Numbered from the stretch's first letter, positions 1,424 through 15,783 are shown. The stretch: 19,003 nt of DNA from an uncultured Eubacteriales bacterium (GCA_948514155.1 CAOQYA010000011.1:1-19003), one strand, 5' to 3'. Translations and numbers: made by a program. The notes: generated by a model from the sequence alone, not told the origin.

Positions 1424-3046
1424 CTATCTCGAAAAAGGTTTTATTTTCGGCGCTTGAAGTTTTGCAAGAGCCTCGTCCGAAATTTCGATAACTCTGCCGC
1501 CTTTAGGATTTATCTTTCTTCCGCCAAACACCACCCAAATTGCACGGCAATTTTCCCTTGGCATAGAGGCCTTTCCGTCGGTGAAAATAATCTTATTCGC
1601 GGCGCGCGGAGAAAAATTATCAACAGCAGCGTTAAAATCGGTTCCTCCGTCTATATTAAATCTGATTTTTTCGATATCTGCCTCCGAGCGAACTTCTTGA
1701 AAATCGATAAATCGGGTGTTAAACTGCCCCACTTTGATGCGAGATACTTGCAAAATGTTTTTGCACTCTCTTAAAAAGTTCTTAAGCAGGTCTTCACTAA
1801 CAGAGCCAGACACATCTAGCATAATCTCTGTTTCAGGCTCGGCATATTTAATAAGCCTTGCATTAAGCACATTGTTTTCAAACTCGCCGTCGCGATATGA
1901 CCAATCAGCATTGATTTTCGCACTTTCGCGCAGCAGCCTTTTCCAATTGATAAGCGGCTTAGCCTTGCCAACATTGTCAAAATTTTTATATCGCGAACTT
2001 GTCCCTTTCCCGGCAAGTCCAGAACTTGATTTTTTATTGAGTTTTTCAATCATCTTTTCGAGATTTTCTTGAACTTGCTTGTCATTTTTCTCGAAAAGTT
2101 TATCTTCACCCTCACTAGCCTCTTCTTCAATCTTCTTTTGACGCTCTTCGTCCTTTTTCTTTTCCTCTTCGCTTTCTTCGCCTTGAAGTTCTTTTTCAAA
2201 GTCAGATTTAAGGCCTTTGCCTTCCTTGTAGTTTTTCACAACCTCTTCCCAAAGGTCGTGGCTATCGTGGCCTGCATTTCCGTCTTCGCTTTCTACATTA
2301 TCGCCGCCTTCCTCGTCACCCGAGCCACTTCGCGAGTCGCCACCTTGGCTTCCACCGTCAGAGTTTTCTCCGCCTTGCGAAGAATTTCCGCTTCCTTCGC
2401 CTTGGCCACTTTCAGCGCCGCTTTCTTGTGAGTCACTTTGCCCTTGGTCACTGCCGTCCGCTCCGTCTGAACTTGGACTATCTTTCTCCGAACTTTCACC
2501 CGAGCCACTCTGTCCTTGGCCTTGACCTTGGCCTTGCTCTTCTTGAGAACTCTCGCCACCTGAGGCTTGTCCCTGGCTTGAGCCTTGACCGCCTCCATTT
2601 TGTTGCTGCTGACCACTCTCGCCTTGCTCTTTTGCTTGTTGCTTCTCCTCGGCTTCTTTAACGAGTTTGTCGTAGATTGTCTCCGCCTTCTTGTTAAGCG
2701 CTTCAGGCATGTCAACACCACCCGCAGGAATTATTCCCCCATCTCTTCTCAACATTTGATTGATAACTGCATCGGTGGCGATGTTCCAAAGTTTTTTAAC
2801 TTTGCCGTCCGATCTTCTAATGTGGTCGCTGGCAATATGCAAAATCTCATGCGCAAGAACGAACTCCTGTCCAGCCTCATCAAGCGTTTCCATAAAATTA
2901 GGGTTAACAAAAATATTTTTCCCATCAGTGCAGGCCGTTGTCATTTTCTCCGTTTGAATAATGCGGCAGCCCGCCACAAGGCTTCCGAAGAAAGGATATT
3001 TCAGCAATGTTTTTCTCTTTATCTTTTCAACATCAAACATATGCAC
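1424..3046 (-). CDS. VWA-domain protein with an N-terminal putative zinc-metallopeptidase domain (DUF2201_N plus DUF2201/VWA-like architecture) and a long acidic low-complexity linker
   Basis: The 540-aa ORF has an HExxH motif (LAHEILHI, codons 66-70, nt 2837-2851). Its C-terminal VWA domain has a MIDAS-like DxSGS (IMLDVSGSVS, nt 1802-1816) plus downstream GGTD and FTDG. Residues about 131-335 are a G/S/Q/E/D/K-rich low-complexity stretch. The gene starts 5 nt after the preceding ORF. From recollection, this family is typically encoded next to MoxR-like AAA+ ATPases. Confidence 0.8.
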   Translation of the reverse strand: MHMFDVEKIKRKTLLKYPFFGSLVAGCRIIQTEKMTTACTDGKNIFVNPNFMETLDEAGQEFVLAHEILHIASDHIRRSDGKVKKLWNIATDAVINQMLRRDGGIIPAGGVDMPEALNKKAETIYDKLVKEAEEKQQAKEQGESGQQQQNGGGQGSSQGQASGGESSQEEQGQGQGQGQSGSGESSEKDSPSSDGADGSDQGQSDSQESGAESGQGEGSGNSSQGGENSDGGSQGGDSRSGSGDEEGGDNVESEDGNAGHDSHDLWEEVVKNYKEGKGLKSDFEKELQGEESEEEKKKDEERQKKIEEEASEGEDKLFEKNDKQVQENLEKMIEKLNKKSSSGLAGKGTSSRYKNFDNVGKAKPLINWKRLLRESAKINADWSYRDGEFENNVLNARLIKYAEPETEIMLDVSGSVSEDLLKNFLRECKNILQVSRIKVGQFNTRFIDFQEVRSEADIEKIRFNIDGGTDFNAAVDNFSPRAANKIIFTDGKASMPRENCRAIWVVFGGRKINPKGGRVIEISDEALAKLQAPKIKPFSR

Positions 3047-3051
3047 GCCTC

Positions 3052-3438
3052 TTAAATTATGCAGCCAACTTGCGCAATTTGCGGCGCAAGTTTATTAAAA
3101 TCGGAGCACAAAACAACTATGCTCACATTTGCGGGCAGTTTAAATGAGCCAATCGCCCTATTTTTTAAAATTTCTAAAAATTTAAGTTGCTCTTTTTCTG
3201 AAATCTTGGCAATATCTTCAACAACTAATATCGAGATAATTTCATCCTTATTCTTGCAAAGTTCTTGCAGCCAATCAGGCGCTTGCCACTTGCCAGAAAT
3301 ATATTGTTCGGACAGCGCTTTATCAATCTCGCAATCAGCGGCAATAAAAGTTGCGCCTTTAAAATCTTTTTTGGCCAGATTTGTGATAACAGGAGAAATG
3401 TTTGCAGCAATAGCCTCTAGTAATTCTTTGTTTTTCAT
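3052..3438 (-). CDS. Small protein that is a P-loop-less paralog of the AAA+ core of the upstream ATPase
   Basis: The 128-aa ORF starts with an ATG that overlaps the upstream stop (ATGA at 3438-3435), with AAGGGAGGA upstream. Its segment APDWLQELCKNKDEIISILVVEDIAKISEKEQLKFLEILKNRAIGSFKLPANVSIVVL aligns by eye to the ATPase segment PPAWYDELVEKCQNEPEKNHILFLDELTNALPSIQGEVLTLVQDRKVNGRFKLPSNCRIVAA. The position equivalent to the Walker A motif reads NLAKKDFKG, so there is no GKS/T. Confidence 0.6.
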   Translation of the reverse strand: MKNKELLEAIAANISPVITNLAKKDFKGATFIAADCEIDKALSEQYISGKWQAPDWLQELCKNKDEIISILVVEDIAKISEKEQLKFLEILKNRAIGSFKLPANVSIVVLCSDFNKLAPQIAQVGCII

Positions 3439-5339
3439 AACGAGATTCCTCCCTTAGTTGAAGTTTCACTAGCAGCAGCACTAAGTTCAGCAATCCTCAT
3501 CGCTCTATCTTTATCGCCATGTATCCAAAGACTGTCAAACACCGCCTCTTCTTCCTCTCCAAGTTTGGAAACGAAGTTTCTAACTGTCGCAAGTTTATCG
3601 TCACTCACATTAGTGAGGCAAGTTGCAGTCAGATATCTAAGGTCTGTCTGCATTTCATCAAGGTCCTCTTGAGTGTAGTTGCCACTCAAAACATCTTCAA
3701 GCGAGATAATTTCGCTCTGGCAGAAAGCAGCAAATTCATCAGCAATATCTCCCACATGCATCCTTGCAAGATATGGATTTCTTCCCGCTTTAAGTTCGTT
3801 GGAAACTTTCTCCCACGCTCTTGGTGTTGCGGAAGGGTTTTTTGGGTCTCCGGAGAATTCAGTTCTAAGAGCGCCATCTCCATTAAAAGCAATAAACGCA
3901 TACACTGCAGGATGTATCCCGGCCTTAGCCGCCCACGGCAGCCAGTTGTCTGTAGTTGTCTGAATATTCACATGTCCAAATCTATCGAAAAGCGGCCTTA
4001 TTATATCATAAGCGGCTTCACTATCTTCCATTTCGTTTCCGGCTGCGACAATTCGGCAGTTTGAAGGAAGTTTAAATCTGCCATTCACCTTTCGGTCCTG
4101 AACAAGCGTCAACACTTCGCCTTGTATGCTTGGAAGCGCATTTGTAAGTTCGTCAAGGAAAAGAATGTGATTTTTCTCTGGCTCATTTTGGCATTTTTCC
4201 ACAAGTTCGTCATACCAAGCTGGCGGAATATCTTCAACCTTGCTGGTTGCAGGATTAAAAATTGTTTTTCCGTTCAGTCTATCCAGCGAAAAACTTGCAA
4301 GAAGCAGTGTTATGCAATCCGGGTCAACCTGCTTCACTCTTGCCGATTTTCCGTCGCCGGGCAAGCCATGCAAAAACACCGGCTCGTCGGCCGCAATAGA
4401 TGCAATAATCATTTCCTTAGGAGTTATGTCGCTGTTAAAATTAAAGTTATATGGGTTGTTAGTTGTCTTTTTCGCTTTCTTTGCAGTCTGTTTTGCGGAG
4501 TTATCACTCTTTTGTTTTCCAGACTGATTTACTAAACTGTCCCACCTTACTTCTTTAGCAAAATAGTTATTAAGATATTTATGTGCAAAAGTCTTTTTAA
4601 AGTTGCCGTTATAACTATCGCTACTATCAAACTGAATTCCCGCAAAAAGCACTCTTTCAGAGAGAATAATCTTTTCGTCCTCGTCAACAAGCCAAGTTAT
4701 CGGCTCAACTTTAACCCAATAAGTTTTTCCTGTCTGGGCTTGTTCCTTGTTGGAAAGAACTCCGGGTGCAGAGTCCAAACATTCGACCCTTACAAATTTT
4801 TCACCTCTCCACTCATATTCTATAACTGTGCGAGGGTCAAAGGCCTTGCTATATTCGTCATAACTATGAGAGTCAAAAGTATATTCATGCCCCGTCTTTT
4901 TAAGAGTTCCGTCTGTAAATTGTTTATCAAGACTTTTCCTCTCTAATTCAGTGGCTAATGTTTGTGGGTATTGCCCAATTTTAACACGAAGAATTCCGTC
5001 TGCTCCCCTCACTCCGTTCGGGAGATCTTTGATTAAAGAGAACGACGAAGCGGGCCGGAAGCCATCATTGCGTCTGCTCGGTATACTCCACGTCTTAGGG
5101 CCGTCAGAGCCCACGACACGAACATCCGTATCAGCATTCTCAGAAGCGGACCACCACCAAGAGGCATGTGCTTGACCAGTGGATGTTTCAACAATCTGGC
5201 CTGAATTAACTGCTCCGCCGAGAACAACAGCAAGGTCTGTTGTGGCGGCTTTTGTGCCATATTTTTTAAATATTTTCAGTTGGTTGCTATCCCAAATTTG
5301 TTCTTGATTTAAAAGTGTAAATGCTTTAGTTTTTGCCAT
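3435..5339 (-). CDS. DGR variable (target) protein: an N-terminal diversified ligand-binding-like domain fused to a MoxR/AAA_5-like AAA+ ATPase
   Basis: The 634-aa ORF contains the VR at codons 58-98. Walker A is GLPGDGKS (nt 4344-4367), Walker B is HILFLDE (nt 4149-4166), sensor 1 is RIVAAGN and there is an FDRF motif. No N-terminal hydrophobic signal peptide or TM segment is visible (MAKTKAFTLLNQEQIWDS...). AGAGGAG lies 7 nt upstream of the ATG. Confidence 0.85.
   Translation of the reverse strand: MAKTKAFTLLNQEQIWDSNQLKIFKKYGTKAATTDLAVVLGGAVNSGQIVETSTGQAHASWWWSASENADTDVRVVGSDGPKTWSIPSRRNDGFRPASSFSLIKDLPNGVRGADGILRVKIGQYPQTLATELERKSLDKQFTDGTLKKTGHEYTFDSHSYDEYSKAFDPRTVIEYEWRGEKFVRVECLDSAPGVLSNKEQAQTGKTYWVKVEPITWLVDEDEKIILSERVLFAGIQFDSSDSYNGNFKKTFAHKYLNNYFAKEVRWDSLVNQSGKQKSDNSAKQTAKKAKKTTNNPYNFNFNSDITPKEMIIASIAADEPVFLHGLPGDGKSARVKQVDPDCITLLLASFSLDRLNGKTIFNPATSKVEDIPPAWYDELVEKCQNEPEKNHILFLDELTNALPSIQGEVLTLVQDRKVNGRFKLPSNCRIVAAGNEMEDSEAAYDIIRPLFDRFGHVNIQTTTDNWLPWAAKAGIHPAVYAFIAFNGDGALRTEFSGDPKNPSATPRAWEKVSNELKAGRNPYLARMHVGDIADEFAAFCQSEIISLEDVLSGNYTQEDLDEMQTDLRYLTATCLTNVSDDKLATVRNFVSKLGEEEEAVFDSLWIHGDKDRAMRIAELSAAASETSTKGGISL
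5046..5166 (-). repeat. DGR variable repeat (VR)
   Basis: This 121-nt segment is colinear with 6674-6794 at a constant offset of 1628 with no indels. There are 17 mismatches, and 16 fall where the coding-sense TR has A. It encodes ASWWWSASENADTDVRVVGSDGPKTWSIPSRRNDGFRPAS. The 3' end in coding sense is the GC-rich, invariant GGCTTCCGGCCCGCTTCG. Confidence 0.9.
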
Positions 5340-5378
5340 AAGTTAACTCCTCTTTCGCAAAACATGTTTATTTTTTAA

Positions 5379-5407
5379 ATTATAACATATTGTGCACAAA
5401 ATTTCAA
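5379..5407 (-). promoter_or_regulatory. Candidate SigA-type promoter for the target operon
   Basis: The minus strand reads TTGAAA (5407-5402), a 17-nt spacer, then TATAAT (5384-5379) preceded by TGT (an extended -10). It lies in the 77-nt gap between the RT stop and the target-gene ATG. Confidence 0.55.
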
Positions 5408-5416
5408 GATAAAAAT

Positions 5417-6448
5417 TTAAATTTCTCCGCTCTTAAGCTCATTTTTAAAACTTTCAGGCTCATTCGTGCGCTTAATGTGTCCATAAAAGGCAGTTTTGCG
5501 CATATTAACATAACTTGTGGAGACAACTTTTTTGCTATGTAGCATTTTTAAGGCTTTAAGTTTGCGCTTCATTCGAATTTTGCCCGATTGGCGAAGCCGA
5601 ACAAGAATTTTGCCCGAAGGGGTCAGTCTGTGATTAAAGCCCAAAAAGTCAATGCCCGCTTTCACCTTCCCTATCTGCGTCTTTTTGTTAAGAGAGAGTT
5701 TAAGTTTGCGGCACTCTTCTTCCACCTTCGCCAAAATCTCGCGAAGTTCTTTCTTGCTCTCTCCAATCAAAATCATGTCGTCCATATATCGCACATAGCC
5801 GCGAACACGCAACTTTTCTTTAATAAATCGGTCAACTCCGTCAAGATAATAAATGGCAAACCACTGGCTAGTTTGATTGCCAAGCGGCAGGCCGCAGTTT
5901 AGATTTGCATATTTGCCACTTTTGATAATAGACCAAATGAATTTAAGTTCTTGTTTCGAAAAGCCGGCTGCCTTCAATTTCCAAATGAGAATGTGGTGGT
6001 CAATCGAAGGAAAATAGGAGCGGATGTCGAGTTTAAGAAAGTAGAAATCGTTGTTTTTTGACTTTCTTAATTGCTGCCTCAAAAACATATGCAAGCGCTT
6101 AATTGCAAATGCCGAGCCCTTAAAATTTTGGCAGGCAACATTGTCGAGAATAAGTTTTTTTGCAAGCCGAGGCTTGATGCTGTTGTTGACAAGGCAGTCA
6201 ACGACCACCCTGTCTTTATATGCCGGGGCTTCAATCAACCTTTCTTTGGGGTCAAAGATGCGGAAGTTGTTATATTCCGAAAACTTGTATTGACCCGAAG
6301 TTATGGTTTTTATCAGTTTATATAAATTCTCGGCAAGATTAAGTTCAAATCTAATCACTTCGCCTTTGTGCTGCTTGCTTTTTCGGCAGTGCTTGTGCGA
6401 CTGATATAAATTGTCAAAAGTAAAAATTTCGTCGAGTTTCAAATTCAC
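5417..6448 (-). CDS. DGR-type reverse transcriptase
   Basis: The 343-aa ORF carries the RT motifs FDPKERLIEAPAYKDRVV, YFLKLDIRSYFPSIDH, GLPLGNQTSQWFAIYYL (the DGR-characteristic [I/L]GxxxSQ), YVRYMDDMILIG (YMDD) and GIDFLGF. It sits next to a TR/VR pair. The start is GTG at 6448, or possibly TTG 6 nt downstream, so the exact start is uncertain. Confidence 0.9.
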   Translation of the reverse strand: MNLKLDEIFTFDNLYQSHKHCRKSKQHKGEVIRFELNLAENLYKLIKTITSGQYKFSEYNNFRIFDPKERLIEAPAYKDRVVVDCLVNNSIKPRLAKKLILDNVACQNFKGSAFAIKRLHMFLRQQLRKSKNNDFYFLKLDIRSYFPSIDHHILIWKLKAAGFSKQELKFIWSIIKSGKYANLNCGLPLGNQTSQWFAIYYLDGVDRFIKEKLRVRGYVRYMDDMILIGESKKELREILAKVEEECRKLKLSLNKKTQIGKVKAGIDFLGFNHRLTPSGKILVRLRQSGKIRMKRKLKALKMLHSKKVVSTSYVNMRKTAFYGHIKRTNEPESFKNELKSGEI

Positions 6449-6673
6449 CTCTTGAAAAAAATATATAATAAAAAAACGCCCATGTCAACATCTAAATCTC
6501 AGACGAGGTCTGGCGTTAGATGTCAGAGCGTTTTATGTTCTTCCACCGCAACTAATATGCTATCACAGCGGTTAGAAAAGAGAAAGGTTCCTTCGCTTTG
6601 CAGCACGGGAGTGCTCGCATGAGCGGCTCAAATCTGGCTGTTTTTTATTATTTCACCTTTGGAAATTCAAAAG
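6449..6673 (-). ncRNA. DGR spacer RNA between TR and RT (part of the presumed avd-TR-spacer template/priming RNA)
   Basis: This is a non-coding 225-nt gap with dense inverted repeats. It contains a nested stem-loop (6473-6479 pairs with 6528-6534, 6488-6495 with 6516-6523, 6500-6504 with 6508-6512). It also contains GCAC-GGGA-GTGC (6603-6614), GCTC-GCAT-GAGC (6613-6624) and ACCGC...GCGGT (6545-6572). Its position matches the functional spacer of characterised DGR RNAs. Confidence 0.5.
6455..6534 (-). terminator. Terminator-like nested hairpin plus T-rich tract just upstream of the RT start, a possible 3' boundary or attenuator of the TR-spacer RNA
   Basis: The minus strand reads AAAACGC...ACATCTAA..CAGAC-ctc-GTCTG..TTAGATGT...GCGTTTTTTTATTATATATTTTTTT, followed by the RT GTG. 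The stems are AT-rich, so termination efficiency is unknown. Confidence 0.35.
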
Positions 6674-6794
6674 CGAAGCGGGCCGGAAGCCATTTTTGCG
6701 TTTGTTTGGTTTATTCCATTTCTTATTGCCGTCAGAGCCCACGACACGAACATTATTATTATCATTCTTAGAAGCGGACCACCACCAAGAGGCA
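6674..6794 (-). repeat. DGR template repeat (TR)
   Basis: This is the non-coding counterpart of the VR. Its coding-sense conceptual translation is ASWWWSASKNDNNNVRVVGSDGNKKWNKPNKRKNGFRPAS, rich in AAT/AAC/AAA/AAG codons. I count about 35 adenines by eye, and 16 of them differ in the VR. It lies between avd and the RT. Confidence 0.9.
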
Positions 6795-6838
6795 AAATCT
6801 AACAAACAATCTTTCCCTTAAATAAATCCTTTCGGATG

Positions 6839-7345
6839 TTATCTTGAATTTTTTGTTCGCCAGCGGTCGCGGTCGGAACTTTTCCACGCCACCGTCAAAC
6901 TTATTGCCTCGGCAGTTTGCATGGAAATCTGATTAAACTGCTTTTTTGTGAGGCAGCCGGCATTTTCGGCCAGAAATGCGATGTAGCCAAGCATTTTAAG
7001 TTTTATTATCGCCTCCGTTTGAAAACTTTGGCGGTCGCTATAATTTTTCACATCGTCCATTCGCAGAAAGTTTGCACGCATCAGATTTTCAACTGTGTCA
7101 AGAGAAAGATTTATCATGCGATTAACAAACGAACTTCTAAACTTTGCCGGCGCTTTTGCGGTGATTGTAACAATGTATGCCGAAAGTTTTTTCGTGACTG
7201 TGACAGCCACCAAGTCATTAACATTATGTGGCAAATTTATGTCGCACTCCGCCCACTGCTCCTCTCTCGCCCTTCGATTTTCTTTGGCGGCTTCCACATT
7301 TAAGTGTTTGCCATTTGCCTTTGCAATTGTTTTTTTTGATTGCAA
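6839..7345 (-). CDS. avd: Avd-like accessory variability determinant (four-helix-bundle family); start uncertain
   Basis: The 168-aa ORF lies immediately 5' of the TR, which is the canonical avd position. The C-terminal roughly 125 aa look helical and Avd-like (..SFVNRMINLSLDTVENLMRANFL...AIIKLKMLGYIAFLAENAGCLTKKQFNQISMQTAEAISLTVAWKSSDR). The annotated TTG start has AGGA only 2 nt upstream, which is poor spacing. The true start may be internal, since typical Avd proteins are about 110-130 aa. Confidence 0.6.
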   Translation of the reverse strand: MQSKKTIAKANGKHLNVEAAKENRRAREEQWAECDINLPHNVNDLVAVTVTKKLSAYIVTITAKAPAKFRSSFVNRMINLSLDTVENLMRANFLRMDDVKNYSDRQSFQTEAIIKLKMLGYIAFLAENAGCLTKKQFNQISMQTAEAISLTVAWKSSDRDRWRTKNSR

Positions 7346-7437
7346 TTTCCTCTTCGGCCGAGACTATGTCGCTGGAGCCAATGTCAATTTTCCTTGGAAT
7401 TCTAAGTCCGTTTTTTCTGCTTATTTCTGTCAATATT

Positions 7438-8628
7438 TTAAACCTTTTTTCTTAAGATGTCGCCTTTCGAAAGGGAAAGTGGAATGTCGGCACAAAATCG
7501 CATTTCGGCAACATTGGCTTTGTCAATCTTGTTTCCGTCAAGGTCGGTCAAATTTTCAAGTTTAAAGGTTTTGTTATGCACGCTTGCGTCGGGGCTCAAA
7601 ACTTCCACCTCGTCGCCCTCTGCAAGGAAATTTCGCTGCTGAATAAGCGCCCTGCCATTTTCCATTTTTTCAATCACGCCCACAAATTCGTGCGTCTGAT
7701 ATGGCGAAGAACTTTCTCGATATTGTCTGTCTTCCTCCTCGAAATAAAAGCCGGTTGTAAAGCGGCGGTGGCTGGTCTTTTCAAGTTCTCTCACAAACTC
7801 CTCGTCTGCTTCTTGTGGCAAGATGTCAAGCGCCTTACGATAGGCGTTTGTCACGCAAGCAACATAGTATGCGGACTTCATTCTGCCCTCAATTTTCAGC
7901 GAGGCAATGCCCGCATCTTCAAGTTCTTTTAGGTGCCTAATCAGGCAGAGGTCTTTGGAGTTAAATATGTAAGTCCCGCGCTCGTCCTGCTCAATCGGCA
8001 TGTCGCCCTCACGGCGCACCTCTTTAACAACATATTTCCAGCGGCAGGCCTGCACGCACTCGCCGCGATTTGCGCCGCGGCCGGTGAGATAGTCGGACAA
8101 AAGGCAGCGCCCCGAATAGGACATGCACATCGCCCCATGCACAAAGCACTCGATTTCCACTCTGCCTTGAAGCGCTTTTGCGATTTTTGAAATTTCTTTA
8201 AGCGAAAGTTCCCTGGCAAGCACAATTCTCTTAACGCCCAGCCTTTCCAAAAACTTAGCCGTCTCAAGATTTGTGACATTTGCTTGGGTGCTCACATGCA
8301 CATCAAGGCAAGGAAAGTTTTCGCGAATGAAAGAGATAAGCCCTAGGTCGGAAACAATAACAGCGTCAACATTTGCTTCCACAAGGCTATGGAGATATTC
8401 GCGCATATTCTTAAAATCGTCGTCGCGGGCAAGAATATTGACGGTCACATACACCTTTTTGCCTTGCTCGTGAGCAATTTTTGTGGCATCCTTAATCTCT
8501 TCAATCGAAAAATTGCCGGCAAAAGCCCTCAGCCCGAACGCTTGTCCAGAAAGATAGACCGCGTCCGCGCCGAAGCGAATTGCTGTTAAAAATTTTTCAA
8601 AATTGCCCGCAGGCGCAAGAAGTTCCAT
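7438..8628 (-). CDS. Peptidase U32 family protein (collagenase-like / RNA-hydroxylation family)
   Basis: The 396-aa ORF has the typical U32 N terminus MELLAPAGNFEKFLTAIRFGADAVYLSG..FGLRAFAGNF and the conserved E.FVHGAMCMSYSGRCLLS segment. AGGTGAG precedes the ATG, and the gene starts 7 nt after the tsaD stop. Confidence 0.9.
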   Translation of the reverse strand: MELLAPAGNFEKFLTAIRFGADAVYLSGQAFGLRAFAGNFSIEEIKDATKIAHEQGKKVYVTVNILARDDDFKNMREYLHSLVEANVDAVIVSDLGLISFIRENFPCLDVHVSTQANVTNLETAKFLERLGVKRIVLARELSLKEISKIAKALQGRVEIECFVHGAMCMSYSGRCLLSDYLTGRGANRGECVQACRWKYVVKEVRREGDMPIEQDERGTYIFNSKDLCLIRHLKELEDAGIASLKIEGRMKSAYYVACVTNAYRKALDILPQEADEEFVRELEKTSHRRFTTGFYFEEEDRQYRESSSPYQTHEFVGVIEKMENGRALIQQRNFLAEGDEVEVLSPDASVHNKTFKLENLTDLDGNKIDKANVAEMRFCADIPLSLSKGDILRKKV

Positions 8629-8635
8629 GTCTCAC

Positions 8636-9688
8636 CTATAAATCAATCGAAGGCTTAGCCGTTAAATCTAAACTTGCAAGCCCCATGCCTTTTCTGATGT
8701 AATAATATGCCGCCGAGCCAATCATGGCCGCGTTGTCTGTGCAATATTTAAGTTTTGGATAATATGCCTCAAAGCCGTTTTCCTTGCAAGCCTTTTCAAT
8801 CTTTTCTTGCAAAATGGAGTTCGCACCCACTCCGCCGGCAATGACAATCTTCTTCTGCCCCGAAAGTTTCATTGCACGAATGGCTTTTTCCACAAGTTCG
8901 TTTGTCACGCTCTCTTCAAAACTGCAAGCGATGTCGGCCTTGGAATAAGGCTCTTTTTTCTGCTCAAATTTGTGAACATAGTTGATAACAGAGGTCTTGA
9001 TGCCGCTGAAAGAGAAGTTTAAGGTGTTATGCAGCGAGTTGGAGACGGTGAACTTAATGTTGTTCTTCCCCTCTCTTGCAAGTTTGTCAATCTCCGGGCC
9101 GCCGGGATATGGAAGGCCCAGCACGCGTGCAACTTTGTCAAACGCCTCGCCGGCCGCATCGTCCACGGTGGAGCCAAGCATCTTAAACTTGTTGTAGTCG
9201 GAAATTTTAAGAAGAGCGGTGTGTCCGCCGCTGACCATGAGGCACATAAAAGGCGGCTCAAGGTCGGGATGCGAAATATAGTTGGAAGCAATGTGCCCGT
9301 GCACATGATTGACAGCAATCAGCGGCTTATTCAAACTGTAACTGAGGCCTTTAGCAAAGTTCACGCCAACAAGCAGCGCGCCCATGAGCCCTGCGCCATA
9401 TGTGACCGCAATCGCGTCCAAGTCTTGAGGCTTAATTCCCGCTTCCTTAATCGCCTCTTCATACAAGTTGGAAATTGCCATAAGGTGATTGCGGGATGCA
9501 ATCTCCGGCACAACGCCGCCAAAGCGTCTGTGAATTTCAATCTGCGAAGAAACAAGATTTGATAAAACTTCCCTGCCATTTTTGACGATGCTGATTGCAG
9601 TCTCGTCGCAAGAACTTTCAATGGCAAGAATAATTAAATCTTTTTTGTTTTTGAGAGCGGCAAACTCGGCCGCCATGTATTTTTTCAT
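8636..9688 (-). CDS. tsaD: tRNA N6-adenosine threonylcarbamoyltransferase TsaD
   Basis: The 350-aa ORF contains ILAIESSCDETAISIV, the VNHVHGHI metal-binding motif, and SGGHT and GGVGAN motifs typical of Kae1/TsaD. AGAGGA precedes the ATG. Confidence 0.95.
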   Translation of the reverse strand: MKKYMAAEFAALKNKKDLIILAIESSCDETAISIVKNGREVLSNLVSSQIEIHRRFGGVVPEIASRNHLMAISNLYEEAIKEAGIKPQDLDAIAVTYGAGLMGALLVGVNFAKGLSYSLNKPLIAVNHVHGHIASNYISHPDLEPPFMCLMVSGGHTALLKISDYNKFKMLGSTVDDAAGEAFDKVARVLGLPYPGGPEIDKLAREGKNNIKFTVSNSLHNTLNFSFSGIKTSVINYVHKFEQKKEPYSKADIACSFEESVTNELVEKAIRAMKLSGQKKIVIAGGVGANSILQEKIEKACKENGFEAYYPKLKYCTDNAAMIGSAAYYYIRKGMGLASLDLTAKPSIDL

Positions 9689-9696
9689 ATTTCCTC

Positions 9697-10792
9697 TTAT
9701 ATCTTTTGCAAATAACTGTTAATAAATTCTTGAATGTCGCCGTTCATGACCGACTGAATGTCGCTGGTCTCATAGCCGGTGCGGTGGTCTTTGACAAGGG
9801 TGTATGGGCAGAAAACATAACTGCGAATTTGGCTGCCCCATTCGATTTTTTTAATCTCTCCCTTAATCTCGGCCATGTGCTCCATTTCCTCACGCTCCTT
9901 CTTTTCGGCAAGGCGAGAAAGAAGCATTTTCATGGCAACTTCGCGATTTTGAATTTGCGAGCGCTGGGTCTGGCAAGAAACGACGATGCCAGTTGGGATG
10001 TGAGTTATTCGAATTGCCGACTCGGTCTTGTTGATGTGCTGGCCGCCGGCGCCGCTGGAGCGGAAGGTGTCGATTTTAAGTTCGTCGGACTTAACTTCAA
10101 TCTCGCCGCCCTCCTCAAGTTCGGGCATAACTTCCACGCTTGCAAAACTGGTGTGCCTGCGCGAGTTAGAGTCGAAAGGCGAAATTCTAACAAGTCTATG
10201 AATGCCTTTTTCGGCTTTAAGATAGCCATATGCATTTTCGCCGGAAATGATAAAGTTAATGTTTTTAATGCCCGCCTCGTCACCCTCGAGCACATCGAGA
10301 ACGGTCAGTTTAAAGCCGTTTTTCTCGGCATACATCGAATACATCCTAAACAGCATGTCCGCCCAGTCCTGCGCTTCGGTGCCGCCCGCGCCCGCATGGA
10401 TGTTCATAATCGCATTTGCGCCGTCATATTTTCCCGATAAAAGAGTGACAATTTTAAGGGCGTCCTGCTTTTTTTCAAAGCCAATTAAAGACTGTTTCAA
10501 CTCTTCAAAAAGTTCGTTATCTTCTTCCAGTTCGCAAAGTTCCAAAAGCGCCGAAATGTCGCTTGCATTGGCATCAAGGCCTGCCACTTCAGAGAGCAGT
10601 TTTTCCTTGCTTCTAAGTTTTTTTCCCACCTCGCTCACTCTGGCCGCGTCGAGATAGAAGTCGCTTTCAAGTTGCTGCGCTTTAAGGTCTTCAACTTCCT
10701 TTTCTAGTTTAGCGGTGTCAAAGACACTCCTTTAAGAAGTTAAAGTTTTCTTCAAGAGTTTTAAATTTCATTTTTTCGTTATCAATAACCAT
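9697..10792 (-). CDS. prfB: Peptide chain release factor 2, requiring a programmed +1 frameshift at 10720
   Basis: The ORF-track fragment 9697-10638 carries the SPF (ISPFDS) and GGQ (SGAGGQHINKTESAIRITH) motifs. My own translation of the upstream frame gives MVIDNEKMKFKTLEENFNFLKECL, then TGA. Shifting +1 at CTT TGA C continues as DTAKLEKEVEDLKAQQLESDFYLDAARVSEVGKK..., which joins the listed ORF. The total is about 364 aa. Confidence 0.9.
10717..10731 (-). promoter_or_regulatory. RF2 autoregulatory +1 frameshift site
   Basis: The minus strand reads AGGAG TGT CTT TGA C. That is an internal Shine-Dalgarno-like AGGAG 3 nt before the slippery CUU-UGA-C, the same architecture as E. coli AGGGGG TAT CTT TGA C. 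Confidence 0.85.
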
Positions 10793-10815
10793 ATCAATCT
10801 CGCTTTTACGGAAAG

Positions 10816-10844
10816 AGTATATCAAAATAAAAATGTTTTGTCAA
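10816..10844 (-). promoter_or_regulatory. Candidate SigA-type promoter of the prfB-tsaD-U32 operon
   Basis: The minus strand reads TTGACA (10844-10839), a 17-nt spacer, then TATACT (10821-10816). It lies about 24 nt upstream of the prfB ATG. Confidence 0.6.
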
Positions 10845-10859
10845 AGCATCTATAGCCTC

Positions 10860-10881
10860 AAAAAAAGGGGCCTCGCCCCTT
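10860..10881 (-). terminator. Rho-independent terminator after the 1285-aa surface protein gene
   Basis: The minus strand reads GGGGC-GAG-GCCCC followed by TTTTTTT, about 40 nt after the stop codon. Confidence 0.8.
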
Positions 10882-10920
10882 CTTTAGTTTTTTAACATTT
10901 TCCATCTTTCAAAACTGCTC

Positions 10921-13900
10921 CTACGCCACAGCCGTAAAACCATTCTCCTTCAAAAAGCCCACAATATTTATGTCTGTTTCAAGAAATTCCTCCTGCCACA
11001 AGAAACTTTTAATAAACGGCACGGACGAAATTTCAAGACCATCATATAGCCCCCAAATTTCATTGCTGAAAGCGCTTTCTTCCGTCTCGTCTTGACCGAG
11101 AATGTAGTTTTTAAATATTGTCGCATCTCCACTTTCACTTTTCTTTAGAGTAGCATCATAGTAGCAACTTGAAAACTCGGTGCTGCCGTTGTTGTTATAC
11201 ACGAACGGCAAAGCCCTGGCTGAAGAACTTATTATTTCGCCTTTGAAAGCGCAGTTCGACGCGGTGAGTTTATTGGTGTTAACTGCGCCGACCAAGCCCC
11301 CTATTCCATAGGCAGACGAGGACAGCGAGCCGCCTTTTAATTTGGCAATGGCATAGCAACTATCAATGTTTGTATTTTTGTTGGTGTAAGCAAGAATTCC
11401 GCCAACAGCAAGCGAAGAGGATGTGACGCTGCCATTATAGAACGCCCTTGTTATCTTTAATGGCTGGCTGGCATTAGATGTGAAACTTCCAAGAATTCCG
11501 CCCGCATATGACACATTGCTGCTTCCATTATTTGCCACAACATCGCATATAGACAAAACATCGGTGATTGTCAGGTTTGACCCGGCAGTTGTAATGGTGC
11601 TATCTCCAACAATTCCGCCTGCAGCGCTCTTGCCAGTAATATTTCCAATGTTCGAGCAGTTCTCGATGGTGCCCGCAAAAACTCCGCAAATTCCGCCTGC
11701 AAAGGTGCCTATAACATCAGCCGAGTTTTTGCAGCCCGATATTTTGGCCATTCCATAAGCCATAATTCCTCCCGAATAGCCGTTTGCATTGTTAATCTTG
11801 CCATAGTTTATGCAGTTATTAATAATTGTCTCACCGTTCGTGTTGAGAACTCCATAACCAGCAATTCCGCCTGCATATTTTTGACTGCCTGTAGCGTTTA
11901 ACTCCCCATAATTTAAGCAATTTGAAAAGGTACAGCCCGCTCCACCATAACCAATTCCTGCCAAATATTGCCCTGTTAAACTTCCAAAATTAATACAATT
12001 ATTAACAATTGTTCCACCAATGCCTTCTGCGCGATCTATGGCCGAGACTACACTCGCGTAGTTCACACTATTATCAACATATCTTCTACCAGTGCCATTC
12101 GTTGCCCCAATAATGCCTCCAGCACTAGTCTGAGCCTTAATCTGCCCGCTAACAAAGCAGTTATCGACATCAACAATTGAAGTTGGTGCTTTAAATGCCA
12201 AAAGTCCTCCAGCAGAGCCGCTTTTTGACACGATATCAGCATCAATAACGTGAACATTTGAAAAATAAGGAGAACCATTAACTATATAACCGGTCAGTCC
12301 TGCATAATCGTTAGCACGAACAGTCAAATTTTCAAAAGTCGTATCGTATATATACAAACTACTATTAACTTTGTTAATAAAGCCAGCACTGACAGTTGTT
12401 TCATAGCCCGCGTTTATATTGGAAATTGTATGTCCTTGACCATAAAGATTAATCGATTGAGGAAAAATCGTGTCTGTGCCTATGCCGTCCCACTTGTATG
12501 CCCCTAGGTCTATATCTGCTTCCAAATAAACATAGAATTGACTGGCAGCAGTGCATTCAGTAAGCCACGCAAGTTCTTCTGCTGTGTAAATGTGCCACGG
12601 GCTGGCCTGACTGCCGCTTCCCTCTCTAGGTTTAATTTTACGCTGGCTCCATAAATTATTCGAAGTCTTATCTGTAAGACCATAGTATTTCATGAAAGAA
12701 ACATTTAAAGGAAACACATATCGCCACTGCTGATTATCTACATCTTTCTCACTCCAAACTGTAAGGTCGAAACTGGTTGGAATAGATGTCGAATTTTTAT
12801 ATTCTACTTCTTGAACGCTATTTGCGACTATGTTATCTGACACGACCATACAAGACAGGTTTTTATCGGTAAAAAATTTAACTGTTCCAAAAGGCAAGCC
12901 ATTTCTCGTTATGCTAATATCAGCCCCAACGAGACAGTCATAAGCATAGTATGATGTCGACGAAAAACCTGCAACATAAACATTCGCTTGATTGCTTGTT
13001 GTTTGTATATTGATTTTTCCAGTGAAAACAAATTGTTTTAAATTTTCTCTTGTTAATGTTGGACCGCCATAAACATTCACATAATTAGTCGAATTTATTT
13101 TCACTTCAGCATCTAAAACAGAAAATCCACCATGTGAAGAATTTTTATTGCTCTGAAAAATTCCTTGTGTAAAACAATAAAGCGTAAAGGCATTTTTAGT
13201 AGTAACATCCACATCAAGTTTTTGAACGGAGACTTGATATAAATTTCCGTTGTAGTAGTTGCTGTTTCCTGCTGCAATTATTCCAACAGTTGCATTTTTT
13301 GCATTCTCACCTATAATTCTTGGGCTTTCGATGATTGTGTTGCTGACAGAAACGACAGCACTCGTTGCTGCTCTCACGAATAAGCCTGTGGTAAACCTGT
13401 AACTCAATGATTTTTCGTAATCAAGATTTATTGTCATGTTTCTAATAACATGATCTTTTCCTATTAAAATCACCTCTTTTTTTATCGGTGTCCAATATTT
13501 GTCAACTAAATCAATATCGCTTTCAAGTTCAATTTGCACTTTATTTGGGCCATTATTTATAAACCAAGCTAGTTCATTTGCATTTCTGACCCTATATGTA
13601 GGAGTTGCTGTTGCGGCAGTTTGATAAGGCTTCTTGCTGTAATCTTCCCAATATTCAACGCTAACAAAATTGGTGTTCAACGAATAATACTCTATTAGAC
13701 AATCATTATCAGGAATGATATATTTGAAAGAACTTGTTAAGTCTGCATCTGACCAAATATTTTTGTCGTAGCCTTCTGGAACAACTGTAATATTGTCTTC
13801 TGGCCTAACTGTATTCAGATTAGATGTCACCTTATTAAATCTAATTTTATTTGCCGGAGTTGTCGCCTCTAATTCATATGAAAAGTTTATGAAGCAATTT

Positions 13901-14778
13901 CTCGACGCCGCAGTAGTGTTAGCGGCATATTCTCCCACATAGCAATAATTTGTAAAACTAGAAGGCAAATCAATGTTTACTTTAACATTTTCAACAACAT
14001 CTGCATATCCAGCAGCAGAAGTTGCCTGCCCGCTTATTCCACCGACAAACACCCCTCCCTTTGCTTTTTGTGACGAAAGTCTAATGCTCACATTTATTGC
14101 AGAAATGCCCTTAGTTTCATATGAAGAGTAAGGAAAGCCTAAAACGGACCCAACATGAGTCTCCCCAGAAAAATTAATAACCTCAATCTGTGAATTTTGC
14201 ACAGAAATATTTTGATAATAGTCATTTGCATTTGAATTAGAAACACCTGAAACAACAAAACCTATGCCTGACGAAGAAGTATAGTTTTCTAAATTTGCTA
14301 AAATCAGTGAATTTACAATTTTAAAATTTTTTGCTTCAATCCTTGAAGAGACATTTCGAAAAAAACCTATATGTCCACCAGCTTGCGAGTTGATTGTTAA
14401 ACCTGATATGGTGTGATTATTCCCTTCAAAATTTTGACCTGCCCATATACTTTTCCACAAATGAGCCGACAAATCTATATCATTGCCAAGTTCTACATAT
14501 CCGGCGGAATGAGACTCAAACCATGCAAGTTCCTCACCTGATGTGATTATGTATGGGTTGGCGGCGGTGCCTGCTCCGGTGGCGGGCTGAGTGGCGTAGT
14601 CTGTCCAGTAGTCGGTTGGAAGGTTTGACGGGTCAATTTCTGTGGCTGCGTGAGAAGGCGTCAAGGAAGGCGCTGAGCTCTTATTTGACTGCGCAAAAAA
14701 GAAGACAAACAAAAAAATGGCAACGATGCTCGCCGCTAAACTGAGCGATATTGTGGAAAACTTTTGCCATTTTTTCAT
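10921..14778 (-). CDS. Large secreted or membrane-anchored surface protein with three tandem modules and GLUG-like (AGGIxG) beta-helix repeats
   Basis: The 1285-aa ORF has an N-terminal signal or anchor (MKKWQKFSTISLSLAASIVAIFLFVFFFA). Each of three modules opens with a W.DY..P....NPY/TY/PW.I...EELAW motif (aa 57, 375 and 709). Each ends with an IWS/G..D......P......Y/F motif. Residues about 855-1165 hold at least 9 repeats of NCxNxGxI/L...AGGIxG. No LPXTG motif was seen. Confidence 0.8.
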   Translation of the reverse strand: MKKWQKFSTISLSLAASIVAIFLFVFFFAQSNKSSAPSLTPSHAATEIDPSNLPTDYWTDYATQPATGAGTAANPYIITSGEELAWFESHSAGYVELGNDIDLSAHLWKSIWAGQNFEGNNHTISGLTINSQAGGHIGFFRNVSSRIEAKNFKIVNSLILANLENYTSSSGIGFVVSGVSNSNANDYYQNISVQNSQIEVINFSGETHVGSVLGFPYSSYETKGISAINVSIRLSSQKAKGGVFVGGISGQATSAAGYADVVENVKVNIDLPSSFTNYCYVGEYAANTTAASRNCFINFSYELEATTPANKIRFNKVTSNLNTVRPEDNITVVPEGYDKNIWSDADLTSSFKYIIPDNDCLIEYYSLNTNFVSVEYWEDYSKKPYQTAATATPTYRVRNANELAWFINNGPNKVQIELESDIDLVDKYWTPIKKEVILIGKDHVIRNMTINLDYEKSLSYRFTTGLFVRAATSAVVSVSNTIIESPRIIGENAKNATVGIIAAGNSNYYNGNLYQVSVQKLDVDVTTKNAFTLYCFTQGIFQSNKNSSHGGFSVLDAEVKINSTNYVNVYGGPTLTRENLKQFVFTGKINIQTTSNQANVYVAGFSSTSYYAYDCLVGADISITRNGLPFGTVKFFTDKNLSCMVVSDNIVANSVQEVEYKNSTSIPTSFDLTVWSEKDVDNQQWRYVFPLNVSFMKYYGLTDKTSNNLWSQRKIKPREGSGSQASPWHIYTAEELAWLTECTAASQFYVYLEADIDLGAYKWDGIGTDTIFPQSINLYGQGHTISNINAGYETTVSAGFINKVNSSLYIYDTTFENLTVRANDYAGLTGYIVNGSPYFSNVHVIDADIVSKSGSAGGLLAFKAPTSIVDVDNCFVSGQIKAQTSAGGIIGATNGTGRRYVDNSVNYASVVSAIDRAEGIGGTIVNNCINFGSLTGQYLAGIGYGGAGCTFSNCLNYGELNATGSQKYAGGIAGYGVLNTNGETIINNCINYGKINNANGYSGGIMAYGMAKISGCKNSADVIGTFAGGICGVFAGTIENCSNIGNITGKSAAGGIVGDSTITTAGSNLTITDVLSICDVVANNGSSNVSYAGGILGSFTSNASQPLKITRAFYNGSVTSSSLAVGGILAYTNKNTNIDSCYAIAKLKGGSLSSSAYGIGGLVGAVNTNKLTASNCAFKGEIISSSARALPFVYNNNGSTEFSSCYYDATLKKSESGDATIFKNYILGQDETEESAFSNEIWGLYDGLEISSVPFIKSFLWQEEFLETDINIVGFLKENGFTAVA

Positions 14779-14829
14779 TCTCTTTACCTTTCATTTTCAG
14801 TTTTTTGTGGACAACTTTCGACAAAATTC

Positions 14830-14859
14830 ATTATAGCCCGCTCGCTCGCTCCTAGTCAA
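14830..14859 (-). promoter_or_regulatory. Candidate SigA-type promoter of the surface protein gene
   Basis: The minus strand reads TTGACT (14859-14854), an 18-nt spacer, then TATAAT (14835-14830). It lies about 50 nt upstream of the ATG. Confidence 0.6.
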
Positions 14860-15051
14860 GCGAATTGTCACCGTTTTGTTACATTCTTATCCTATTTATC
14901 TAAGTTTATTGTGTATAACTTAACTGCATATTATCACAAGAAAAGTTTTAAAACAAAATTATTTGTGGATAAACTTTGCCCGCTTACATATTGTTACACT
15001 AATTGCCGCTTCGCAAGAGCTTTTTCACTAATCGTTAAGAGAATTGAAAAA

Positions 15052-15084
15052 ATAAAAAAACTCGGCCAAATGTGCCGAGTTTTT
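15052..15084 (-). terminator. Rho-independent terminator after the 222-aa ORF
   Basis: The minus strand reads CTCGGC-acatttg-GCCGAG followed by TTTTTTTATTTTTT, 10 nt after the stop codon. Confidence 0.8.
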
Positions 15085-15094
15085 CAGGTTAGAC

Positions 15095-15763
15095 TTAAAC
15101 TCTTGGCGGAACGATATTGCCTGTCGCTGTTGGATAGAGCGGCATTTCGAAAAGTCCCGGGCAAGCGCTTGCGGCCGGTGCGGAATGGCATGGCGGGATA
15201 ACCGGATAGCCATACGAAGGCACAAGCACATCAACAACTGCCGTCACTCTGATAATCACCTGTAAGCAGCCTGTAACGGTGAAAGTGTTTTCGCCGGTTG
15301 CTGTGCCGATTTCACTTGAGAAAACTGCACTTGCGGTGATGTTTATTGGAGTGACAGAAGGTTGTGGAACATAGAGAACAACATTCTTGCTCACTGTGAT
15401 TGTCGACCTTCCCGTTCCCAGAACGCCGTTTGCGTCACGATAGTTAACAATAACTGGGATTGTGACGGTTGCACTCACATTTGCATAGTTCGGGCAACTT
15501 TCCAATCTGTCAACAACAAGGTCGGAAATTGTCACTGCTTCATCTGGAGCGTTAGCCGCAGAAATGAATGTGAGAGGCGTTGCAGGGTTAGCAGGATTAA
15601 GGTCGGTAACAGGGAGAACAATTCCGGTCTCGGTGCTCTGCGAAACGCAAGCGTCGAAAACCTTGGTGGTCTCAATTAAGATTTTTTCACAAATTCCGTT
15701 GAGCGGGTTGCCCATGATAGGACCCGGACGACTAGGATTTGTATTGTTGATGTAAAAAGACAT
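15095..15763 (-). CDS. Hypothetical protein (222 aa), function unknown
   Basis: This is a long ORF with AGGAGG 7 nt upstream of the ATG and its own terminator. It is T/V/P/N-rich and looks beta-rich, with no signal peptide and a Pro/Cys-containing C terminus (YGYPVIPPCHSAPAASACPGLFEMPLYP). I do not recognise a family with confidence. Confidence 0.6.
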   Translation of the reverse strand: MSFYINNTNPSRPGPIMGNPLNGICEKILIETTKVFDACVSQSTETGIVLPVTDLNPANPATPLTFISAANAPDEAVTISDLVVDRLESCPNYANVSATVTIPVIVNYRDANGVLGTGRSTITVSKNVVLYVPQPSVTPINITASAVFSSEIGTATGENTFTVTGCLQVIIRVTAVVDVLVPSYGYPVIPPCHSAPAASACPGLFEMPLYPTATGNIVPPRV

Positions 15764-15783
15764 TTTCCTACCTCCTGTTTTGT

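Follow-up and report, generated by a model that had tools for sequence, protein, structure and literature searches.

A diversity-generating retroelement that very probably diversifies the N-terminal module of a predicted MoxR-like AAA+ ATPase

Introduction

The targets of diversity-generating retroelements (DGRs) are usually surface or phage-tail binders with a C-terminal variable lectin fold. What does such an element do when the protein that it varies appears to be a cytoplasmic, ATP-driven machine, and the varied part is its N-terminal head? The question is raised by a stretch of 19,003 nucleotides (nt) from an uncultured Eubacteriales bacterium (GCA_948514155.1, CAOQYA010000011.1:1-19003), the whole of which we call the window. 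The original prediction, made from the sequence alone, had placed a complete DGR at 5046-7345. These limits cover the variable repeat (VR), the reverse transcriptase (RT) gene, the template repeat (TR) and an avd-like gene, but leave the greater part of the target gene (3435-5339) outside, together with its two operon partners (1424-3438).

We are very confident that an active DGR diversifies the N-terminal module of this ATPase. We are also confident, leaving the biological role aside, in the fuller description of an active chromosomal DGR acting on the N-terminal module of an ATPase with MoxR-like/VWA anatomy. Coordinates are those of the whole window, all genes of the locus are on the minus strand, and bases of the TR and VR are given in the coding (minus) sense.

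Adenine-specific differences between the two repeats

The element was recognised by a pair of repeats:

5046..5166, minus strand: VR, coding for target residues 59-98 (alignment, translation, natural variants, family entropy)
6674..6794, minus strand: TR, non-coding, with 35 adenines (ungapped comparison, repeat finder)

Ungapped comparison reproduced the proposed alignment of 121 nt at an offset of 1628, with 17 mismatches, 16 of them at TR adenines. Beyond the 121 nt, the flanks of both copies were unrelated, as had been claimed. When the mismatches were tabulated by TR base, a check suggested with the original prediction, they were concentrated on A and not spread over the four bases (hypergeometric P=1.6e-9 for at least 16 of 17 on A, given 35 A in 121 nt). 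The pair was recovered by the repeat finder as family D1, the sole long repeat in the 19-kb window (86% identity). One of the features that define a DGR, a near-identical repeat pair with its differences at adenines of the non-coding copy, was thus present. Read in the frame of the VR, the TR encodes ASWWWSAS-KNDNNN-VRVVGSDG-NKKWNKPNKRKN-GFRPAS, while the VR translation starts ASWWWSAS-ENADTD-VRVVGSDG and ends GFRPAS; the earlier translations of both were reproduced exactly.

The single mismatch off adenine (TR 6755 T, VR 5127 G) was common to two other assemblies, was not found in an alternative VR allele, and had mutated adenines on either side. It is private to a single VR lineage.

Turnover of the variable repeat in near-identical assemblies

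Over 4.6-6.1 kb, four NCBI assemblies of the same species matched the window at 99.3-99.9% identity. Of the differences, 19 of 23 in one assembly and 19 of 31 in another fell inside the VR of 121 nt; the remaining two assemblies had 2 of 4 and 2 of 5 there. The TR was identical to that of the window in all four. The alternative VR allele differed from the TR at 12 positions, all of them adenines (12/12). Members of the protein cluster (≥90% identity) varied in residues 67-92 only, save for one substitution elsewhere in P0122, and the A-templated positions of the VR were the highest-entropy columns in the alignment of the target family. All open reading frames (ORFs) of the DGR locus were intact in the window.

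The population check that had been proposed was thus run at the level of assemblies, and the VR varied while the TR stayed constant. Since assemblies this close have one and the same TR and differ almost nowhere but in the VR, the element is taken to be currently active; the earlier claim that it has been active was borne out.

Frameshifting indels within the VR were seen in two further assemblies, which come from the window species or one closely related to it (L084:2675-3030 and L085:106-340); that in L084 is a 1-nt deletion near an AAAAA run. Because of these frameshifts, the target is called as two genes, a short N-terminal ORF and a longer one of 525 or 574 amino acids (aa) for the rest.

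The reverse transcriptase and the avd-like gene

Two further genes belong to the core of the element:

5417..6448, minus strand: DGR RT (ORF from GTG 6448; motifs LGNQTSQ and YMDD)
6839..7345, minus strand: avd-like accessory gene, a 168-aa ORF from TTG 7345 (PHROG 3206, relatives)

The likely start of the RT is TTG 6442, which gives 341 aa, as called in public assemblies. The RT matched Pfam RVT_1 and PHROG family 1423 (RT; 2.8e-93). Both motifs named in the original prediction, LGNQTSQ and YMDD, were found in the translation and fit the DGR-clade patterns [LI]GxxxSQ and YxDD, the placement coming from best matches and not from a tree. The best match among solved structures was a 328-aa 'Reverse transcriptase', 8ub7 (E=3.9e-32), which we take, in keeping with its length of 328 aa, to be the Bordetella phage DGR RT; the next was a group II maturase (4.6e-13). 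Among annotated phages, relatives of the RT were found in DGR-carrying Faecalibacterium, crAss-like, Bacteroides and Bordetella phages.

The avd-like ORF lies upstream of the TR with the RT on the other side, as had been described. It matched PHROG 3206, 'Avd protein of DGR' (8e-12), and a ribosome-binding-like sequence, GAGGAAA, stands just upstream of its start. It was kept upstream of the TR in related loci, with 43-58% identity over about 162 aa. It had no match among PDB sequences.

The order avd-TR-RT-target had been singled out as different from the Bordetella prototype. It does differ, since the target lies downstream of the RT, but it is not unusual, because the core avd-TR-RT ('Architecture B') is the commonest DGR layout and the position of the target varies widely among known DGRs (PMC5758913).

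A MoxR-like AAA+ ATPase with the variable repeat in its N-terminal module

The divergence of the VR had been seen in the original prediction, which overlooked its position at the N-terminus of a 634-aa AAA+ ATPase. The target comprises:

3435..5339, minus strand: target gene, 634 aa (ORF, translation; more than 2400 homologs)
4536..5339, minus strand: N-terminal module, aa 1-268, compact predicted fold with a VR hairpin (AlphaFold2, residues 4-268: pLDDT 84.5, pTM 0.83)
aa 269-296 of the target, minus strand: disordered linker (AlphaFold2)
3462..4451, minus strand: putative AAA+ ATPase module, aa 297-626, with a helical C-terminal region (Pfam, PHROG, Foldseek)

This layout, a compact N-terminal module, a disordered linker, an AAA+ domain and then a helical region, was that of the AlphaFold2 models, which were built with 60 homologs. 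The VR occupies residues 59-98 of 634, not the C-terminal position of a canonical DGR target. No signal peptide or transmembrane segment was found from the hydropathy of the target, which is predicted to be a soluble cytoplasmic protein, neither a surface nor a phage-tail protein.

In the ATPase module, Walker A (GLPGDGKS, aa 325-332) and Walker B (HILFLDE, aa 391-397) were invariant in the 60 homologs. The module passed the cut-off of Pfam AAA_5 (24.5 bits, cut-off 22), fell just under that of bpMoxR (25 bits, cut-off 27), and matched PHROG 1297, 'ATPase' (8.8e-44). Its Foldseek neighbours, with E about 1e-5, were NorQ (complexed with the NorD VWA domain), RavA, CHU_0153 (a MoxR protein), McrB, sigma-54 activators and MCM; the probability was 1.0 for NorQ, RavA, CHU_0153 and McrB. 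The AAA_5 match, the invariant Walker motifs and these neighbours assign the C-terminal half to the MoxR-like AAA+ ATPases, and we leave its predicted subfamily at that level.

For the N-terminal module, no significant relative by structure was found. The Foldseek search of its model against PDB and BFVD gave no match at E≤0.001 (best E 0.09-0.13, TM <0.2), and its family profile had no match among PDB sequences. In homologs, the VR region matched the C-terminal half of DUF6273 (26-29 bits, cut-off 23.5), mostly at profile positions 77-170. A circular permutation of DUF6273 was tried, for the window protein and for four homologs, by placing residues 200-268 before 1-104; this did not lengthen the match to Pfam, and the idea was dropped.

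An exhaustive search placed the module in 1609 clusters at 50% identity, and it appears to be a widespread mobile domain. It was also seen as a stand-alone protein (about 270-330 aa) or fused to ankyrin, DUF4116 or BspA-type LRR repeats (proteins P0139-P0287), and was found doubled within proteins of about 900 aa (P0006 and others).

A structured spacer RNA and homing signals within the coding sequence

Between the TR and the RT, the following elements were identified:

6449..6673, minus strand: spacer of the DGR RNA, with six helices (alignment of 17 loci, RNAalifold)
6682-6681/6591-6590, minus strand: helix H1
6677-6670/6599-6592, minus strand: helix H2, TR 3' end paired with the spacer
about 6668-6663/6654-6649, minus strand: helix H3 (two columns of the 5' arm are gaps in the window row)
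6630-6622/6617-6609, minus strand: helix H4
6576-6568/6549-6542, minus strand: helix H5
6533-6526/6481-6474, minus strand: helix H6, followed by a U-run

The alignment ran from the TR 3' end to the RT start and comprised the window and 16 related loci. RNAalifold gave 41 pairs in the six helices, 21 of them with compensatory changes among the 17 loci. With this structure fixed, 96.2% of the cells were paired, and none of 500 column shuffles reached the observed covariation. When the partners were slid by 1-3 columns, the number of covarying pairs fell from 21 to 3-7. The spacer sequence of the window alone gave a folding z=-3.2. In the BPP-1 prototype, RT-Avd is recruited by a spacer with structure, and the junction at the TR 3' end is where cDNA synthesis is primed (PMC12875486); helix H2, which would pair the TR 3' end with the spacer, fits this picture.

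Helix H6 and the U-run (6460-6533, minus strand), at the end of the DGR RNA, resemble an intrinsic terminator. A promoter-like site, TTGACA-17-TATATT, overlaps this region directly before the RT. The terminator-like end and the promoter-like site hint that the template RNA and the RT mRNA may be separate transcripts.

On the side of the VR, two candidate homing signals were found:

[quoted passage not shown]
5003..5024, minus strand: inverted repeat 21 nt downstream of the VR, within the target coding sequence (CTCCC, 5024-5020; 12-nt loop; GGGAG, 5007-5003)

The 19-nt end is identical in TR and VR, and the homology ends after it. It is assigned as IMH-like by analogy, the model being the GC-rich IMH of DGRs as described in PMC5758913. 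At the inverted repeat, a stem of at least 4 contiguous pairs was found in 23 of 24 target copies beside an intact DGR and in 7 of 7 where remnants of an RT are left; of the 32 copies that have no RT, only 14 kept it (Fisher P=3.5e-6, uncorrected for phylogeny). Five compensatory states of the stem were seen (CTC/GAG, CCC/GGG, CAC/GTG, TAC/GTA and CCT/AGG), and the encoded amino acids change in step. Because the VR is N-terminal, the IMH-like end and the inverted repeat both lie inside the coding sequence.

With the spacer and the inverted repeat, each of the DGR parts that were tested for was present: RT, Avd-like gene, TR/VR pair, structured spacer, inverted repeat and VR turnover.

Operon partners and chromosomal setting

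Two genes follow the target:

3052..3438, minus strand: 128-aa protein, overlapping the target stop codon (BLASTP against target aa 373-431, E=6e-7)
1424..3046, minus strand: metallopeptidase-VWA partner, 538-540 aa (Pfam DUF2201_N 4.4e-30, DUF2201 6.1e-11)

The 128-aa protein is a paralog of the Walker B to sensor-1 segment of the target that lacks the P-loop. It had no family match in the Pfam and NCBIfam scans, and its gene was kept downstream of the target in most of 76 related loci. It may intercalate in the ATPase ring or cap it.

The partner has an N-terminal putative zinc metallopeptidase domain (HEILH) and a C-terminal VWA-like domain with the DxSxS motif DVSGS. The ATPase therefore has, as known from sequence alone, the neighbour with a MIDAS-type-motif VWA domain that characterises a MoxR/VWA pair. 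The linker between the two domains of the partner (aa about 130-340) is a low-complexity stretch of roughly 200 residues, acidic and rich in Gly, Ser, Gln and Glu. The partner matched PHROG 1314 (1.7e-62), whose annotation as 'HNH endonuclease' is apparently a misannotation; it had no match among PDB sequences. Its gene was kept in nearly all of the 76 related loci. The target, the 128-aa gene and the VWA-peptidase gene are probably co-transcribed as one operon.

The locus has prfA-tsaD-U32 peptidase as neighbours at one end and hrcA-grpE-dnaK-dnaJ at the other. Within the window, no phage structural, integrase or replication genes flank it, and it is chromosomal.

Distribution among gut Bacilli

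Relatives were scanned with one genome per species; the window species itself was not in the collection, and the best match had 43% identity. Judged by its relatives and by gene context, the window species is probably a Bacilli-like gut bacterium. Relatives of the three-gene group (target, 128-aa protein and VWA-peptidase) were found in 348 species-level genomes, mostly of animal-gut Bacilli. Most of the 76 loci that were fetched came from metagenome-assembled genomes with the label Bacilli or Tenericutes, and the isolate names of several refer to the human, mouse or rabbit gut; CAG genomes labelled Clostridium or Coprobacillus were also included. The three-gene group was kept in nearly all of them.

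For 55 loci, the upstream sequence was 2.5 kb or longer; 20 of these had an intact RT directly upstream, 7 had RT fragments and 28 had none within reach. The seven species with RT fragments only (47-234 aa) upstream of the target were L003, L004, L031, L033, L039, L056 and L058. In 17 DGR-bearing loci of other species, the TR was found about 1.6 kb upstream of the VR, with mismatches at A only in 7 and mainly at A in the rest. The layout of the window, with mismatches dominated by A, recurs in about 20 other species.

Several other arrangements were seen. A 77%-identical relative (L082:1921-5172) has the U32 peptidase and directly then the target, with the same synteny and no DGR cassette. Target paralogs occur in tandem in L020 (six copies, 2514-15887) and in L036 (four identical copies). 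In L046, two target genes match a single TR.

Stop codons in the templates of relatives

DGR templates are said to avoid stop codons (PMC12875486). In 11 of the 17 related TRs, stop codons (TAA, TGA or TAG) were present in the VR frame at one or two fixed positions (L002, L007, L011, L013, L014, L017, L022, L025, L040, L041 and L052; VR near 8200 in most). The VR itself had a stop at exactly those positions, with the remaining ORF intact, in 6 of 24 copies beside an intact DGR but in 0 of 39 without an intact RT. Genetic code 4 was considered for the in-frame TGA in VRs of relatives and rejected, as TAA and TAG occur at the same positions. The TR of the window has no stop codon, but mutation can turn 6 of its 14 AAN codons into stops, these six being AAA or AAG.

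The stop-bearing templates run against the rule of stop avoidance, and their pattern suggests that they are tolerated and that the DGR may make reversible OFF alleles. Template codons starting with T also sample Tyr, Trp, Phe, Leu, Ser and Cys, so that this may be a benefit bought at the cost of stops. Alternatively, the VR stops of relatives and the VR frameshifts of the window species could be explained by consensus assembly of a hypervariable region, that is, as artefacts.

Comparison with known systems

The core of the element is ordinary. It resembles the DGR of Bordetella phage BPP-1 (mtd-avd-TR-brt) in several features: the core avd-TR-spacer-RT lies on a single strand, mutagenesis is specific to adenines, TR and VR have in common a 3' end that is GC-rich and free of A, the VR is followed by an inverted repeat, and the spacer from TR to RT is structured (PMC5758913, PMC12875486). 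In contrast to BPP-1, the target of the window is downstream of the RT, its VR is N-terminal with the IMH-like segment and the inverted repeat inside the coding sequence, and it is a predicted cytoplasmic AAA+ ATPase instead of a phage tail-fibre tip. The TR of the window also has AAA or AAG at 6 of 14 AAN codons, whereas AAC and AAT are said to be favoured.

A parallel to the target is found in the VMAP ternary, DGR-linked MoxR-vWA conflict systems (Kaur et al. 2020, PMC7159879; Dore et al. 2024, PMC10907252), which also combine a DGR, a MoxR-like AAA+ ATPase and a vWA partner. They are known from cyanobacteria and purple sulfur bacteria, some of their targets are predicted to be cytoplasmic, and their variable domain has been proposed to be the sensor of a conflict system (PMC7159879, PMC10907252). 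Their VR is part of a C-terminal domain of the FGE/C-type-lectin kind, which belongs either to the vWA protein or to a separate target beside the ATPase, whereas that of the window lies in the N-terminal module of the ATPase. Their hosts are multicellular bacteria, whereas those of the window family are gut Bacilli from metagenome assemblies, and the partner in the window is a DUF2201 metallopeptidase-VWA protein. Compared by published description, the window does not qualify as a VMAP system: the scan of window ORFs turned up neither a VMAP nor a peptidase-adaptor nor a TIR component.

DUF6273 has been reported as a lectin-like, VR-bearing domain in phage 'tentaclins' and in targets of Faecalibacterium prophages (PMC10743442, PMC11792537). 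In these and other DUF6273 targets, as in homologs of the window target, the VR is at the C-terminal end of DUF6273. Tentaclins are phage receptor-binding proteins with Ig-like domains and an N-terminal VR. The window family, by contrast, shows only the second half of DUF6273, and only in homologs; its module is fused to an ATPase and had no phage relatives by tblastn.

An AAA-type (Midasin-like) ATPase domain within a DGR target has been described for the 'UVR4' targets of candidate-phyla-radiation bacteria, whose VR class is unclassified (Wu et al. 2018, PMC5758913). In the P-loop NTPase targets of that study, as we read it, the NTPase domain is upstream of the VR; the VR position of UVR4 is not stated (PMC5758913). 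An N-terminal VR was found in only 3 of the 372 DGRs surveyed there (PMC5758913).

NorQ/NorD and other MoxR-VWA pairs share with the window the AAA+ fold class (the top Foldseek hits) and a nearby VWA partner with DxSxS. They have no hypervariable N-terminal module and no retroelement, and their partners lack an HExxH peptidase domain. The role known for them is the insertion of metal cofactors (PMC13036017, PMC9976466).

No published description of this target architecture or family was found in the full-text literature searched, of which the coverage is incomplete. What appears to be new is the arrangement of the target, conserved across many animal-gut Bacilli. The interest of the system thus lies not in the DGR as such but in its target, in homing signals embedded in a coding sequence, in the spread of the family through at least 348 species-level genomes, largely of gut Bacilli, and in the stop-bearing templates of relatives.

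Proposed mechanism, possible role and alternative explanations

By analogy with the Bordetella phage prototype, a transcript of the TR that also takes in the 3' portion of avd and the structured spacer would recruit RT-Avd, with the TR 3' end held in a spacer helix. cDNA would then be made across the TR with random misincorporation opposite adenines, and would replace the VR, guided by the A-free GC-rich shared end and the inverted repeat 21 nt downstream. The outcome was observed: among strains, changes are found at A-templated positions of target codons 67-92, while the TR and the rest of the 6-kb locus are constant.

From the anatomy, the ATPase would form an AAA+ ring bearing six variable heads on flexible linkers, on which the VWA domain of the partner would dock as in NorQ/NorD. 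The HExxH domain suggests that the complex may carry out proteolysis. The variable module would act as the head through which a complex driven by ATP, for remodelling or for proteolysis, recognises its substrates, and the DGR would re-programme what it binds inside the cell. The use that we consider most likely, a tentative conjecture, is the recognition of fast-evolving proteins of invaders (phages or mobile elements); it is favoured because of the analogy with the DGR-linked MoxR/vWA conflict systems (Kaur et al., Dore et al.).

The boldest reading of the locus, to which we give a probability of roughly one in four, is that of a retroelement-programmed hexameric AAA+ remodeller with a VWA-metallopeptidase. 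It would serve the anticipatory, antibody-like capture and destruction of cytoplasmic invader proteins in gut Bacilli, and stop-bearing templates would make each retrohoming an ON/OFF gamble, a form of phase variation. If the variable head selects substrates for remodelling or proteolysis, the notion of sensors diversified by DGRs, so far tied to multicellular bacteria, would come to include gut commensals that metagenomes alone have revealed. The head would, in that case, be a natural scaffold for evolving intracellular binders as well, and the system, as a six-gene, 6-kb cassette, is directly testable.

Several observations weigh against our main explanation, from the active DGR to the possible role of the machine. 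MoxR/VWA pairs are best known as maturation chaperones (NorQ/NorD), not as immune devices. The target, the 128-aa protein and the VWA-peptidase had no match in PADLOC-DB 2.0 at E≤0.01. The machine does not depend on diversification, since a DGR is missing within 8 kb in about half of the related loci. As for the variable module, a C-type lectin fold was considered: the Foldseek matches in PDB and BFVD were at noise level, with none to a C-type lectin DGR target, and the window target had no match to Pfam DUF6273 at E≤1; a C-type lectin fold is therefore not established. Within the DGR itself, the avd-like ORF scored under the curated cut-offs of Pfam bAvd (1e-4) and NCBIfam DivGenRetAVD (2e-4). 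The inverted repeat is weak in the window alone (-3.2 kcal/mol, z=-0.08), its support being comparative only. Present-day activity is read from differences between assemblies.

The main rival explanation accepts the DGR as real and takes the machine for a housekeeping MoxR/VWA maturation chaperone or quality-control protease, whose range of clients or adaptors is tuned with no link to invaders. The closest ATPase structures include NorQ with the NorD VWA domain and RavA, the locus adjoins the hrcA-grpE-dnaK-dnaJ chaperone operon, no PADLOC defence family was matched, and many species keep the three-gene group without a DGR. However, a fixed cellular client gives no reason for hypervariation, and in the literature consulted DGR targets face variable ligands (PMC8144416, PMC10907252). 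The null VR alleles in 6 of 24 DGR-linked copies of related species fit better with a dispensable, conditionally useful function, and the dnaK synteny was seen only in the window species group, the loci compared for it. We regard this explanation as unlikely, though it has to be taken seriously.

A second rival holds that the ATPase, the small protein and the VWA-peptidase came from a phage or mobile element and serve that element, in superinfection exclusion or takeover. Such an origin could account for the matches to PHROG 1297 (8.8e-44) and PHROG 1314 (1.7e-62), for the relatives of the ATPase part in 666 phage records, including N4-like and jumbo phages, and for the nearest annotated relatives of the RT, which are in gut phages. 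The phage relatives of the ATPase part have <32% identity. We consider this rival improbable, since the flanks hold no phage genes but conserved housekeeping genes on both sides, and the three-gene group stands at the same place, DGR-free, in the 77%-identical relative. The N-terminal module, moreover, had no match in 50,697 phage records by tblastn, by which a phage origin of this module was rejected. It is also absent from the 341-aa ATPase gene of the phage locus L083, the one phage neighbourhood inspected.

That the element is a relic, whose TR and VR diverged long ago and which no longer undergoes retrohoming, is very improbable and effectively refuted. Related species with RT remnants (7 loci) or loss (28 loci) and the one TR/VR mismatch off adenine would be expected of a relic, but assemblies that are 99.3-99.9% identical elsewhere carry different VRs with the same TR, the second VR has all 12 of its 12 differences at adenines, the ORFs are intact, and conservation with covariation is seen in both the spacer RNA and the inverted repeat.

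The last rival, an RT of another family (retron, group II intron, Abi or DRT) beside a coincidental repeat, is refuted: it could draw on sub-threshold hits in NCBIfam and PADLOC, where RT models of the group II, Drt3a, retron and UG types were listed, and on an NCBIfam scan whose sole listed DGR match in the locus was to Avd and none to an RT model, but those hits were all far below curated cut-offs, 8ub7 was the best structure match by 19 orders of magnitude, and LGNQTSQ, the Avd gene, the A-specific TR/VR pair and the VR turnover in the population would be left unexplained.

Known anti-phage defence systems were also considered as an identity for the locus and were rejected, as no PADLOC model matched.

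Other features of the window

Rfam and tRNA scans of the window gave no match. Two promoter-like sites were listed by consensus match:

5379..5407, minus strand: TTGAAA-17-TG-TATAAT, 11/12, in the 77-nt gap before the target gene
6460-6488, minus strand: second promoter-like site, 11/12, before the RT

The total of such sites in the window was not above shuffled expectation.

Two further ORFs were noted. One, of 222 aa at 15095-15763, had no family match. The other, of 1285 aa at 10921-14778 (minus strand), had no Pfam match and contains a family of repeats of about 20 nt, with five copies between 11487 and 12124.

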